Positions 37,901 through 52,900 of a DNA stretch of 64,000 nt are shown here, piece by piece. The notes below the pieces were generated by a model. That model searched no databases. It had not been told where the DNA came from and saw only the letters and a program-made list of their open reading frames with translations. The stretch comes from Flaccisagitta enflata (Eukaryota): contig OZ231126.1 of NCBI GenBank assembly GCA_965153355.1, positions 32,860,001 to 32,924,000 of the forward strand, read 5' to 3'. Position numbers and translations under genes: made by a program. How positions within the stretch are numbered: position 1 is the stretch's first letter; each line of letters begins with the position of its first letter.

Positions 37901-40900
37901 CACACACACACACACACACAACGATGGGGTTTTCCCCCCCACGCGTGTAAATGTACGTCTCGCTGAAGCGGTTCGAACCATTTAACGCTCTCATCAAATC
38001 GTTTTTCTGGTGCTCGCGACCATTTTTGGGCTCGTTTTATACCTCGATTTTACGACTTACTTCCTTCTCTTAATGACGCTTTTCCAAATGAGAGGCAATG
38101 ATTCGACCACCGAGAGAGGATTTTTTCCCCTGGCTGCTGGGCTACCGCTTTCTGTTTTATCCTTTCTTTCCTTCCTTCCTTCCTTACTTCCTTCCTTTCC
38201 CCCTCGCTCCCATTTCCACCTCTCTCCCAATTTTCACCTTTCACGTGGGCCACTTAAGTTTATATGAGGCTGTGTCCTTTGGGTCGTTCGGTCGGTCGGT
38301 CGATTGGTCTGTAATTTCTTCGACGATCCACACGGCGCACGTTTGGGCCTACTTGGCCTGGTTATATGAACTTTGCATTGCAGCTGTAACCCATTGGAAG
38401 GTCAAACACCGCGTTCATGAATCTTTATCTGCCGCGACTGCATTTCCGTTGTTGGTGAAACGTCATTGCTTTTCAAACCTCTCCAAAAAAAGCACTCGCG
38501 CTAGTAGGTTCCTGTTCTCTTTTGTGTGTGTGTATGTATGTGTGTGTGTGTTTGTTTGTTTAATTGTTAGTATGTTTGTTTTTGTTTGTGTGTGTGTGTG
38601 TGTGTGTGTGTGTGTGTGTGTGTGTGTGTGTGTGTGTGTGTGTGTGTGTGTGTGTGTGTGTGTGTGTGTGTGTGTGTGTGTGTGTGTGTGTGTGTGTGTG
38701 TGTGTGTGTGTGTGTGTGAGAGAGAGAGAGAGAGAGAGAGAGAGAGTGTGTGTGTGTGTGTGTGTGTGTGTGTGTGAGAGAGAGAGAGAGAGAGAGAGAG
38801 AGACCCTACACCGCCTACACAGCTCTGTACACATTGCATTGTGTACGAAAACCAACGCGCAAAAGGTCAGGCCCGAGGAAAGGAAACCATAAAAAGAACA
38901 ACTAAAAAACAACCATTATCTGCTTTGGACATTCATGGCCTTTCAAAGCAGGAATTTACAATTCACTTTTTTAAAAAAAAAAACAGAATAAAGAAAAGAA
39001 GAGTTCCATCGTTAAGTTTGAAAAAAAGAGGAAAGCTGAAAAAATGTTGGTCATTTTTCAGTTTTACGCGGATAACGATTATGTACATTACTCTCTCAAC
39101 AAGCTCGTTTAGTTGAAATACAACGACGACTGTAACATCATGATCAACTCAGCGCATCTCGAAATCCCCTTCTTCCCGCTCCTCCTCTACGTCATCATCC
39201 AACTCGTTGTCTTCCCTCCTATCATCCAAGTAGACGCAGTTAATCCAAGTTCGTAATCTTCGGGTGCTCCTAAAGAATGCAGTCCTGTATATAATTGAGT
39301 TCCCCCTCCCCTTACGATGTATCATAAAAAGCAGTTTGCTGATAATTTCGTTGCTACAAAAATGATAGAAGACTTTGTCCGATTGCCTTGAAATTTTAAA
39401 TGATGTCTAGGTAGTGTGTCTTTTGATACCAGTTCAAATTTTGTGAGAATCGGAAATTGTTTTCTATGATTTTTGCATGATCCTTTATTATGACTTGTCA
39501 AAATTCCTGAAAAATGATGCATTTTTAAAAAAAATTACATTTATTTCTGAATGGTTTGAGCTGATACTCAGATTTCTCCTTTAAAAGAGGGCCCAAAATA
39601 TAGATCAGTGAAAAGGGCTCCAAGACAGTCTTAAATTTCCATTTTTTTTTCAACCATATCTTCATAAACAAAACACTTAATGAATCCTAATCACTAATTC
39701 CTTCAAACCTCAGTTTTGCAAACCATCATTAAAATCTTTTGTATGGTGAAAATGATAGTAAAAGTTGTACAATTTGGATGAAATTTTAGAAGCTGTTAGA
39801 GGGAAGTATGTTGTACCTCCATGTCAATTTTTGTCTGAATCGGATAACATTAAGTATGGTTTTTAGTCGCGGACAAGCGACTCTATAAGAGGCTTTGTCC
39901 GTCCGTCCGTTGGTTGGTTGGTCGGTCCGTGGTGATCGAGTTGGAAAGTGTGAAAACGCGCATTTCCGCCCCTGCCCACCCGTCCGCGACTGGTATTGGC
40001 CGTGTATCCGGCCTTGTTAAGAGATTGTTTCCATGTTATGATCACTTACTCACCGTAAGGATCAAAAAAGTGTAGTGTTTTTCAAATTACTGTAGCTTCT
40101 AAACCATTTGAGCTACAATGTCGCGACACGGCTCAAATGAAAGATCTTTCAAAGATCTTTCTAACCATCACCGATTTTCCTTAGTTTCTTTCAAATTAAG
40201 TTGGTTAAAATAGGTTTTAAAAATCCGCTTTTTTTTATGATACAAAGGTTAGATGATATTGTTATTTCCTCAAAGAAATGAATCGATTAAAAAACATTTC
40301 TCATTACATCGTCGGGATGATTCTAATGATGATGACAACAGCAATTGCACGACGAATATGAGGGTAAAGAGAACGGCAACAACGACAACGTTGGGGCCGT
40401 GAATTTGGGTTATGGGATTGGAATTTGGGCTGTGAGGCTAGAATTTGGGTCCAGAGGCCCTTTGAGGGAGGGTGACTGGAAAATGGACCTCTGGGCTAGA
40501 ATTTGGGCTCTGAGGCTTGAGGCTGGGAAGGGGGGGTAAGCTTGAGAAGGAGAAGGAGAAAGAGGCCAGCAGGCCCAAAAGGAGCCTTGAATTTGAGAAT
40601 TGGGGTAGGAATTCGGGCTTTGAGGTTAGGATTTGGGTCCAGAGGCCCTATGAGGAAGGGTGCCTGGAAAATGGATCTCTGGGCTAGAATTTGGGCTCTG
40701 AGGCTTGAGACTGGGAGATGGGGTAAGCTTGAGAAGGAGAAGGAGGCCAGCAGGCCACGAAGGACCCAATGACCTATGCTTGGCGCCCTGAGGCTTACAT
40801 TTGGATCTAGAGGTTGTGATTTGATACTTGTGACTGAAATTTGGGCCTCGAGCCTTGAATTTGGGTTTTGGGGTAGGAATTTGGGCTCTGAGGCTAGGAT

Positions 40901-49900: not shown

Positions 49901-52900
49901 AGGCACTTTAATGAAAAGCTGCAAAGATGTATGTGAAAAAATACGCTGCATTATGTTCACTTTTTTTTTCTCACTTTTGAACGTTTTTTCAAGGGAACAA
50001 GGCCAAGTTGGCCAATAGGTGCGACGTGTGGATCGTCGAACGAATGCGTTAAAGACAAACCAACCGACAAACCAACCAACCGACGGACACAGCCAGTTAT
50101 AGAGGTGCTTTGTCGCACCTAAAAAGAAAAGAAATGAAAAGAACAAAAAAGAAGAAAAAAGATTTTACACAACGAAAAAACTATTCATCTCTGAGTTTGA
50201 GAGACTTTAGAATGTGGCAGCACCAAACATACAACTATGTAACAGCGATCCACATACATACTACTGTTGCATTTTTAGTTGCGGACACGCAACTCTATAA
50301 GAGGCTTTGTCCGTCCGTTGGTCCGTCCGTCGGTCCGTCCGTCTGTGGTCCGTGGTCATCGAGTTGAAAAGTGGGAAAACGAGTGTTTTTGATACTTTTT
50401 GTGTATGTTTGAGTGTTGGCGGTGGGTTAGGGTGTGGCTGTGGGTTGGATGCCCCTGCCCACCCGTGCGCAACGATATTGTGACCCCGCGTCACTTTTTT
50501 TATTTCTTCATGGGCAGGGGCCGACGAACAGCAATCAAAAGGACGAAGATGCGCCGACGAATGATGAGGCAACAGCCGCTAGCCGTAATACTGCGGTAGC
50601 ATTGTGACTTCAGTGAGCTCTAAGTTGTAATCATGCGGTAGCATTGTGACTTCAGTGAGCTCATAAGTTGTAATCATGCTGTAGCATTGTGACTTTAGTG
50701 AGCGCATTAGTTGTAATCATGCGGTAGCATCTTAGGCGTATAATGTTAAAGTGCTAGTTGTGTTATCTGATCAAATGGTGTTGATATAGAGTTGACGCAG
50801 ATGATGACGACGACGACCACGATGATGATTGAAATGATGATGATGATGATGATGATGATGATGATGATGATGATGATGATGATGATGATGATGATGATGA
50901 TGATGATGATGATGAAGATGATGACAATGATGAAGATGACGACGATGATGATGATGATGTGACGATGGTGATGACGATGACGATGATGAAATTGATAATG
51001 ATGATGATGATGATGATGATGCTTTTTGCTCCATGGGCCTTCAGACACGTCGGGTGAACAATGGTCTTTCCGCTTCTTCTAAGCCTAAGCCTAAGCCTAA
51101 AACTGCGACGGGAGTCGGGAAAACTTTCTGAAAAATTGCAGAATTTCGAGGGACAAAATTTGAATATTCATAACTCGAGGAAAAAAAGGAAAGACTTACC
51201 CGGGGAAGAGAATGATGATTTAGGAGGAAACTACGCAAGCAGCCGAAGACCGAAAGGTCGTCGTACCAGAAATCCAGATTACTCTTGGGATGTTTAAAAG
51301 ATTATAGAAATAATTTTACCGCGACATTGAAACTTGTTAGCTGAAATGATTAATATCCAATTGTTGGTTAAGATATACCGAAAGTATTTTTAAATAGAAG
51401 TCGGATTGTTTTGTTCCTGTCAACTCTATTCTCAATTATTCTATTTGTTGACGGTGTACGGTGTACACTGTACACGCAGAAATCCTCGTGTAATCGCTAA
51501 AAAGACGCAACGTACCCAGCGCATGCAGTGCACACTCAGCATAAGCTCAGTGCGGCATACATGCTGCCAACTTGTTTTCAATACGGCTTCGGGAGAAATT
51601 TTTTTTACAGAATTGGGAGGCCCGATAGTTTGGTAGTTTTGGGGCTTTTCAATTCGGCGCCGCGTCGTCATTGCGACGCCGCATGTCTTAGAACCGCCAA
51701 ACACACACACGCGCAACGCGGTTCCGCTGATTAAAAACGGTGCTCGCTCGGCGATGGGAAGATGAAAAGTCGTAAGCGTCGACCGTCGGCGTTACTAAGG
51801 CAACGCGTGTTAGCGTGTGATGAGTTGACACACGCACGCGCGCGTGTGCGACCTGAAATCACACGCACGAAAATCGAAATTAGGAAACGACCGACGAGTT
51901 TGCCAGTTTGCGACTCGCGGTTGACTTGCGAACTGTCGTTATTAGGTCGTTATACGTGTAGATGGCACGTATCACTCGCACACCCGCGCGCCTGTTGATG
52001 CATGCACCATTTCCTTCATATCTAAGACTCTAAGTAGATATTTAAGTAGGCGGCGATATCAGCGGGGGTAAAAAAGCTCGCTCGAAAATCATTTTTAGCA
52101 ATTTGACTAAAGTGAGGGCGCTGAATAAAACTGTGGAAATCATATGTCTTCAGCATTACTCGTTTTGGTGTTGTTCAAACATTTTTATTATAAAAAGACG
52201 GGAAAAAAGGTAACACTTATCCTACGACTTCTTTCTAAAACTCATCTCCAATGACATTTTCTCTAAGTCAGAGTTAACTTTCCAATGTATCATTACGCGT
52301 TGAGAAAGAAAGACAGACTGGCTAAAACAAACGAAAAAATAGACAAAGAGATACGCTGATACGTATAAATTGCATCAGAACACCAAAGGTGAATCCGACT
52401 GCATGCAGTAATCTGTAAAACGCCATTTGGCGCCTCAAAAAAAATGTTTCCGTAGAGAGTTAATGTTAGTGCGTCTCTCACTACAGCATAATAAGACGGC
52501 AATGATGACAAGGAAAATTGCTTCATAAAAATCCCCTTTACTTTAGTCTTCATCCGAGTAGGGAAGTAGGTCTAGTAAGAAAAGTGAAATATCTGCCAAA
52601 TCTTATGAGTAACATCGATGAAAAAAAGATTGACCATAATACATGTGAAATACTATAGATTGAAAAAAAATATGACTGTCTGTGCTTAAGTTGACCTTTA
52701 CGTCCCCGGACTTTAACTCTGAGCGCATGAACAGAAAATTGTATGAAACATTGTGTCAATTGATTTAATATCAAAAATCGTGGGTGCTTTTATCTCCTAA
52801 TTTTCATTTGAAATCCAAAGCAGAACTTAACACTTTACCCGCCGGTGCCGTTGCCGGGATTGTAGAAGCTAGCGTTTGGCCGTAGTGATTTTATCTTACA

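Follow-up and report, generated by a model that had tools for sequence, protein, structure and literature searches.

A divergent basigin-like gene, probably nested on the same strand within a long cadherin intron of Flaccisagitta enflata

Genes that lie inside the introns of other genes have been catalogued in mouse and human, where, by the figures given in PMC11694760, pairs of host and nested genes account for more than a tenth of genes, the nested partner prefers long introns, and the two partners share an orientation about as often as they oppose each other, with a slight bias toward the opposite one. Here we describe a locus of this kind in a 64,000-nucleotide stretch of the Flaccisagitta enflata genome (assembly GCA_965153355.1, contig OZ231126.1, positions 32,860,001 to 32,924,000 of the forward strand), which we refer to as the window and whose first nucleotide is position 1. 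An earlier interpretation, which we call the sequence-only reading, had placed a complete basigin-like immunoglobulin (Ig) gene in this window, on the same strand as, and inside an intron of, a cadherin gene. Our analysis suggests, with a probability of roughly 0.72, that the + strand carries a separate multi-exon gene whose product, a type I glycoprotein that spans the membrane once, belongs to a divergent branch of the basigin family, and that this gene lies wholly within a 23.6-kb intron of a cadherin gene with multiple extracellular cadherin (EC) repeats. That a separate nested basigin-like gene exists inside the cadherin intron at all is likely. Its position on the strand of the cadherin gene and inside one of its introns is strongly favored by the phase-compatible borders of the host intron, by the Pfam matches of the host exons, and by a scan for cadherin linker motifs. 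Like the reported nesting of OMP within an intron of CAPN5, the locus would be a complete transcription unit that a larger gene carries in one of its long introns, with no difference in kind. The statement that nested genes are usually antisense did not hold up, the bias given in PMC11694760 being only slight; from the orientation and frequency figures of that source, same-strand nesting is ordinary.

The family in question is that of basigin, neuroplastin, and embigin. In the account of it given in PMC4846773, the transmembrane (TM) region is highly conserved and a glutamate in the middle of it completely so; the TM and cytoplasmic regions suffice for binding to MCT1; basigin is also present in Drosophila and Schistosoma, and the fly and human proteins are only moderately alike outside the TM and juxtamembrane regions; and the Ig domains are of the C2-set (D1) and the I-set (D2). 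Members of the family have two or three Ig domains outside the cell, and the one next to the membrane contains a disulfide. Like basigin, neuroplastin, and embigin, the protein encoded in the window is predicted to cross the membrane once, in type I orientation, and to carry an outer Ig domain, a proline near the outer end of the TM helix, a glutamate at mid-helix, and a basic E/D-K/R-R-R stretch. Its similarity to the family sits in the TM and juxtamembrane segments, the part that PMC4846773 describes as conserved across phyla. It differs from basigin in having a very divergent extracellular part, similarity to the family being significant at the profile level only, as well as a non-Ig linker of about 40 residues after the first Ig domain and a TM helix that is 3 residues longer in the alignments.

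The exons that carry the case for this gene are four internal ones, all on the + strand, which we number 2 to 5. Two open segments stand out on this strand: an open reading frame (ORF) at 44023-44376 that contains the Ig motif DLGQYYC, and one at 47402-47740 that encodes a hydrophobic helix followed by EKRR. Exon 2 (43594-43771) encodes the first half of Ig domain 1 (LLKC...W) and ends at a phase-1 donor, ACAA|GTGTGT; this 3' border is supported, and the candidates for its 5' border are 43547, 43594, and 43600. On the opposite strand, positions 43489-43977 form a 163-codon open frame, which probably only reflects the coding sequence opposite it. Exon 3 (44099-44371), with the acceptor TTTTATCTCACAG|, encodes the second half of the domain, including DLGQYYC, and a linker. 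Exon 4 (44679-44925; donor ACAG|GTGTGT) encodes an extracellular segment that may be the N-terminal half of a membrane-proximal Ig-like domain. Exon 5 (47470-47739; acceptor TTCCGCAG|, donor AAAG|GTGACG) supplies the C-terminal strands of that domain, the TM helix with its proline and mid-membrane glutamate, and the juxtamembrane sequence EKRRERK. The Ig motif, and the helix with its EKRR, are present as the sequence-only reading had described them.

These exons were compared with P0006, a 296-residue protein that is encoded by a single uninterrupted ORF on a 1848-nucleotide JGI contig. When P0006 was aligned to the window by tblastn, it fell into four co-linear pieces on the + strand: residues 2-12 at 43723-43755 (E 5.5), within exon 2; residues 18-108 at 44098-44364 (E 6.4e-12), over exon 3; residues 109-175 at 44669-44926 (E 0.002), over exon 4; and a last piece at 47525-47728 (E 1.1e-10), within exon 5. 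The GT-AG junctions between the exons agree in phase (43771|44099, 1+2 bases; 44371|44679, 1+2; 44925|47470, 2+1), and the 968 nucleotides of exons 2-5 contain neither a stop codon nor a frameshift. From the exon coordinates we built by script a spliced model of 441 residues, consisting of a candidate exon 1, exons 2-5, and a tail that starts at 48364, in which all five introns are GT-AG; splice sites were scored with crude, hand-made weights that serve as a guide only. The model aligned with P0006 as one high-scoring segment pair, residues 74-365 of the model to residues 2-275 of P0006, with an E value of 3.6e-42 and 30% identity across 300 columns. The numbers of gap columns within ten residues of the four model junctions were 0, 1, 0, and 1, the junction between exons 2 and 3 being free of gaps. 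Given that the uninterrupted ORF of P0006 aligns in four co-linear, phase-matched pieces bounded by GT-AG sites, exons 2-5 are, on this comparison, real coding exons of one gene, far beyond chance. Ig domain 1 shows the pattern C...W...DLGQYYC, with the two cysteines at positions 50 and 126 of the 441-residue model, and the model contains two N-x-S/T sites.

Further relatives came from a HMMER search of 1.84 billion representative proteins with exon 5, which returned eight proteins at E<=0.001. The closest, P0001, is a 128-residue ORF on an ENA contig of 833 nucleotides and is 90% identical to exon 5; its similarity starts exactly at the acceptor 47469|47470, and its 36 preceding residues have nothing in common with the window. 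It also surfaced when exon 5 was searched by words against proteins of comparable length. P0002 and P0003 are single-exon ORFs with 44% and 48% identity to exon 5, and P0006 shows 35% identity. P0001, P0002, and P0003 all terminate where the donor of exon 5 lies, a common end that is expected when an AG|GTRA donor is read through in that phase. Judging by these database sequences, the gene of exons 2-5 occurs in other organisms without cadherin sequence. The nearest named invertebrate protein is P0008 (XP_061173498.1, "hemicentin-1-like," from the oyster Saccostrea echinata), with an E value of 7.4e-4 to exon 5. It resembles the window protein in its basigin-type TM segment, at about 36% identity over the TM exon only, but differs from it in having strong Pfam I-set and Ig_3 domains (E 1e-46 or better) and two TM-bearing units. 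Its 779-residue model contains two basigin-type TM and juxtamembrane segments, around residues 357-396 and 710-749, which suggests that the predictor joined two tandem basigin-like genes into one. The remaining proteins, P0004, P0005, and P0007, are long bacterial-type repeat proteins in which 26 to 49 query residues matched, and these were set aside as chance or low-complexity matches.

Other searches returned no additional members. Among longer proteins, the search by words of exon 5 scored 62 candidates, and not one of them reached E<=0.01; with P0006 as the query, 387 candidates gave P0006 itself as the only match; and a metagenome scan with P0006 matched 302 pattern stretches, of which none was confirmed. 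A metagenome scan with a profile built from the four exon-5 sequences (profile A2) gave four loci, L001-L004, all of them rejected as spurious, their shared 26-residue match lying inside a stop-filled frame. These four JGI metagenome contigs carry an identical element with the short chance match GEATWTVKPV, which is unrelated to the gene.

The assignment to the basigin family was made at the C-terminal end. Searched against PDB, exon 5 alone gave basigin as its best match (E 0.021), with neuroplastin also listed. With profile A2, the top five of 21 PDB matches were basigin and neuroplastin chains, at E values from 2e-6 to 2.3e-4 (basigin, 2e-6; neuroplastin, 4.5e-5), and the next match after these was an erbB-2 TM peptide at E 0.0039. 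The alignments span the last strands of the membrane-proximal Ig domain of basigin, the helix with its proline and mid-membrane glutamate, and the EKRR stretch. Comparison of profile A2 with P0008 by hhalign gave a probability of 95.5% and an E value of 1.5e-8 over 84 columns, and P0008 in turn matched neuroplastin (9.6e-29) and basigin (6.7e-20) in PDB through the TM segment and tail. When P0006 was looked up in the ESM Atlas, the nearest named clusters were Basigin (0.95; 192 of 256 features) and Neuroplastin (0.94), and half of the ten rows shown were basigin or neuroplastin. Residue by residue, the glutamate of ...LIILVVEVVL... aligns with the TM glutamate of basigin and neuroplastin and is shared by the window, P0001, P0002, and P0003, so that four of the five sequences of the branch keep the membrane helix with its proline and glutamate; the sequence EKRRERK lines up with EKRRK in basigin and EKRKR in neuroplastin, and the basic juxtamembrane feature of the family is present. 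Taken together, the profile search, the hhalign comparison, and the ESM Atlas look-up bear out the earlier description of a multi-exon Ig/TM gene of basigin type. They support the view that the inner gene is a divergent member of the basigin/neuroplastin/embigin family, and this view rests on the C-terminal ~85 residues.

The ends of the gene are less clear-cut than its middle. At the 5' end, candidate exon 1 lies at 39140-39229 (+), where ATG 39140 opens a hydrophobic ORF of 30 codons, a possible signal peptide. This is the sole non-repeat candidate among three signal-like ATG ORFs that the + strand offers from 35.0 to 43.6 kb. Its donor, CAA|GTAGAC, is weak. An alternative phase-1 donor at 39248|39249 pairs just as plausibly with an acceptor at 43546|43547, which is better than those at 43594 and 43600. 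With pyrimidines at 10 of 15 positions in its polypyrimidine tract, this acceptor is the best-looking one ahead of exon 2, and any exon spliced to it from upstream would have to end 1 base into a codon.

On the 3' side, exon 5 stops two bases into a codon. The continuation that we weakly favor is candidate exon 6 (48364-48631, +), a predicted cytoplasmic tail in the frame with VDDPAGG, which gives the 441-residue product. Its acceptor at 48364 (polypyrimidine 10/15) is the best among the phase-compatible acceptors in the block, its codon log-odds are 0.35 versus 0.18-0.22 in the other frames, and its inclusion adds 3 bits and brings the alignment to residue 292 of 296 of P0006. The frame-1 tail (48365-48628) found no basigin-family match in PDB, the sole match being ZO-3 at E 0.062. 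The other frame of the 48364 block would give a product of 433-451 residues. Alternatively, read-through of exon 5 would end at the stop codon 47741-47743, followed by AATAAA at 48032, with a product of 353 residues. An exon near 48364-48631 is the most likely 3' end, and the read-through stop is less likely.

The sequence-only reading had instead proposed a complete gene of eight exons and 507 residues that ends at position 51131. A stop-free, eight-exon GT-AG ORF with that end can indeed be built, and the stop codon at 51129-51131 is present as described, but the chain is not unique and its exon 1 is a candidate only. With exons 1-5 held fixed, we counted 109 three-exon GT-AG tails that give exactly 507 residues when exon 2 starts at 43594, and 120 when it starts at 43600. 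With this many alternative chains of identical length, the last three exons of the 507-residue chain hold no information beyond chance. Many of the chains pass through a copy of an interspersed repeat at ~50.05-50.34 kb. The terminal region (50958-51131, +) is an ORF that runs through a (GAT)n microsatellite to the stop and is not supported as coding; its only match was a weak tblastn match to the P0006 tail (E 3.2). Between 50532 and 51084, no acceptor continues exon 5 with at least 25 open codons, and the region can be reached only via arbitrary intermediate exons. The (GAT)n run at 50.78-51.02 kb creates the poly-Asp ORF that had been taken for the last exon. We infer a product of ~350-460 residues, not 507.

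A number of observations weigh against the gene as we have described it. With regard to its ends, both strands of the window (128 kb) contain 17 comparable signal-like ATG ORFs, two of which are the TM exon itself, and with that many the signal-peptide exon is no better than chance; of the signal peptide claimed earlier, the hydrophobic ORF behind ATG 39140 stands and the exon is a candidate only. The 3' end is ambiguous, with several candidate tails, none of them with a significant match; the frame-1 tail had no significant BLASTP match to P0006 or P0008. With regard to its domains, the Pfam matches to Ig domain 1 (Ig_3 at E 0.0036 for the ORF around exon 3; I-set at E 2.3e-4 for P0006) are both below the curated cutoffs, and Pfam found no family in exon 4. 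An AlphaFold2 model of P0006, made from a 6-row alignment, had a mean predicted local distance difference test score (pLDDT) of 46, with the TM helix alone confident and the membrane-proximal domain below 50. The second Ig-like domain of the sequence-only reading survives in part: its C-terminal half aligns to basigin D2, but it is only this half that does so, the canonical cysteines are absent from the membrane-proximal region (...QYRC... of basigin faces ...NRTLNV...), exon 4 has no Pfam family, and the fold prediction failed. With regard to its relatives, only four were found among the searched proteins (P0001, P0002, P0003, and P0006), three of them single-exon ORFs. P0006 has no N-terminus, so that independence of the gene from the cadherin on the 5' side is only presumed, and the source of P0006 may be a cDNA or an intron-poor genome. 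P0006 also carries a valine in place of the TM glutamate (alignment A3), which means that the glutamate hallmark is not fixed in this branch; a role as a transporter partner may not hold, and the branch may have drifted.

Some of these same observations would suit a basigin-like pseudogene, decaying or non-expressed, whose internal exons are still open and whose working start or end has been lost. Neither a convincing first exon nor a convincing terminal exon was found, candidate exon 1 has a weak donor, the acceptors at 43594 and 43600 ahead of exon 2 are weak as well, and repeats and microsatellites are scattered across the locus. We nevertheless consider a pseudogene unlikely. Exons 2-5 have kept all 968 nucleotides open and their GT-AG sites intact, and exon 5 is 90% identical in protein to P0001 while the translation of the flanking intron shares nothing, as would be the case under purifying selection. 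The same exon is conserved in two further organisms at 44-48% identity.

We turn to the intron in which the basigin-like gene would be nested. The host intron (34977-58566, +) is 23,590 bases long and encloses exons 2-5 of the inner gene together with every candidate for its ends. Its donor, ...GGCAG|GTGAGT at 34976|34977, ends the host exon 34897-34976 (+), which follows a ...TTTGCAG acceptor and encodes the middle part of one EC repeat, with the translation ENEQNVHAYGITIQAEDQATSSQKLA plus 1 base. Its acceptor, ...TTCTTGCAG|GC, lies at 58566|58567. Cadherin-like sequence resumes on the + strand at 58567, after ...TTTTTTCTTGCAG, and contributes 2 bases to the split codon, which is restored as GGC (Gly). 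The exon that starts there (58567-58655, +) encodes the last strand and the linker DRNDNDPIF of the split EC repeat and then the start of the next repeat; in a PDB comparison, the linker part of this exon aligned with the linkers that join the repeats of cadherin chains (105 chains at E<=10). No further linker-like motif was found in an open + frame from 34977 to 58566, both regular-expression matches being either stop-broken or unlike cadherin. Since phase-compatible borders rebuild one EC repeat, with no other linker motif between them, the 23,590-base intron, as reconstructed, is very probably real. The borders are present as the sequence-only reading gave them. A single EC repeat is thus encoded by exons at ~18.95 kb, 33958-34092, 34897-34976, and 58567-58655. 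A second very long intron (~15 kb, 19.0-33.96 kb in the window) also splits this repeat, judging from where the exons at ~18.95 kb and 33958 fall on the Pfam profile.

Tandem arrays are common among cadherin genes, and the flanking exons could accordingly belong to two neighboring cadherin genes, or to a misassembled join, in which case the basigin-like gene would be intergenic. This is very unlikely, because the upstream exon ends mid-repeat at a consensus donor and the missing strand and linker follow at a consensus acceptor in the right phase. In addition, one interspersed repeat family is found inside the intron and on both sides of it, with 7 copies between 12.5 and 59.0 kb, and the base composition is even across the borders.

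Less likely still, the Ig/TM exons could be an alternative 3' module of the cadherin gene, with exon 34897-34976 spliced to 43546|43547 to give a short EC/Ig/basigin-type-TM chimera: the cadherin exon leaves exactly the 1 base that this acceptor needs, the signal-peptide exon is a candidate only, and P0006 has no N-terminus, but agreement in phase has a chance of one in three, the alternative donor of candidate exon 1 at 39248|39249 suits this acceptor too, the splice would cut the EC repeat ahead of its last strand and Ca2+-binding linker, which are supplied only at 58567-58655, and neither P0006 nor P0008 carries any cadherin sequence.

We therefore return to a separate nested gene and to how such a gene would work. 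The inner gene would have its own start, possibly at ATG 39140, and its own 3' end. Transcription of the host would read through it, and splicing would remove it together with the intron, as in other same-strand nested genes. The mutually exclusive or tightly coupled expression that the sequence-only reading proposed for the two genes is speculation. Six RNA runs, all coded as marine metatranscriptome or plankton runs, hold 0.06-0.18 of the words sampled from 43500-48700, shares that do not count as evidence of expression. At the protein level, the charged TM helix may pair within the membrane with a multi-pass transporter, such as a monocarboxylate transporter or a Ca2+ pump, and chaperone it on its way to the surface, while the outer Ig domain would mediate recognition. 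The role as a transporter partner is a tentative proposal, made by analogy with the family and falling somewhat short of even odds. We give the least credence of all to a functional meaning of the same-strand position, whether as a coregulated or physically coupled pair of cadherin and basigin-like protein or as a chimeric EC-Ig/TM isoform made via 43546|43547, combined with a lineage-specific basigin branch that lacks the membrane-proximal disulfide. A coupled pair would echo what PMC8830789 and PMC10579432 report for mouse hearing, in which neuroplastin and embigin interact genetically with cadherin-23.

The interest of the locus is chiefly one of annotation; the nesting itself is ordinary and opens no new question. 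Gene predictors run on the Flaccisagitta enflata genome could fuse the locus or drop it, and no predicted protein from this genome that includes exon 5 turned up in the searched protein collection. For the basigin family, the gene would add a very divergent and rarely sampled branch, in which the extracellular part has drifted while the helix has been kept. Such conservation of the helix despite drift agrees with the idea that it forms the family's functional core.

The rest of the window is occupied by the host gene. Base composition is ~41% G+C across the 64 kb of this animal genome. Short exons that encode EC repeats are scattered along the + strand from ~4.8 kb to 63.5 kb, with EC-linker motifs in open + frames at positions 4930, 18919, 58596, and 63536. 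Pfam Cadherin matched five of the ten ORF pieces submitted, the best two at E 3.6e-10 (33958-34275) and E 3.2e-10 (59057-59323) and the three others more weakly; by these and the PDB cadherin matches, the host gene encodes EC repeats. The first of the two contains the host exon 33958-34092 (+), which covers Pfam Cadherin positions 18-73 and precedes exon 34897-34976, and the second contains a host exon (within 59057-59323, +) that covers positions 5-75 and comes after exon 58567-58655.

The sequence-only reading had called the host a classical cadherin. A catenin-binding cytoplasmic domain is the defining feature of that class, and the label was not borne out within the window, which holds EC repeats only: EC-coding exons continue to its end, the last linker motif being at 63536, with no TM or cytoplasmic part of a cadherin inside it. 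A CELSR/Flamingo identity was also considered for the host and rejected, the 104-bit score of exon 59057-59323 against CELSR1 in PDB being a sum of nine repeat matches of which the best single one reaches 26.4 bits. Exon 33958-34092 prefers cadherin-23 in PDB, and the four PDB matches of exon 18823-18999 are only to protocadherins and cadherin-23, with no CELSR chain among them. Across the three exons compared with PDB, no repeat-by-repeat orthology of the host to the EC domains of CELSR was found.

Microsatellites and interspersed repeats are numerous in the window. The interspersed repeat family mentioned above has copies at 12475 (+), 16125 (-), 20888 (+), 22721 (+), 39881 (+), 50293 (+), and 59038 (-), in introns of the host as well as in the span of the inner gene, and its translation shows a LY[KN][RP]LC[PR] motif and, after it, (G/R)(P/R)SVG-like repeats. 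A ~20-base unit forms arrays at 26.4-29.6 kb and 57.0-57.3 kb, and also at 40.3-42.4 kb, that give ...GPNPSLEAQI...-like peptides on both strands; their 16 motif hits cluster at a spacing of 20 bases, and they probably belong to a minisatellite-bearing element. Long microsatellites or low-complexity runs are found at 38587-38718, 41634-41787, 50.78-51.02 kb, 53434-53598, and 55145-55262. The GT-type run at 38587-38718 translates as VCVC, and the CT/GA-type run at 41634-41787 translates as SLSL and RERE.

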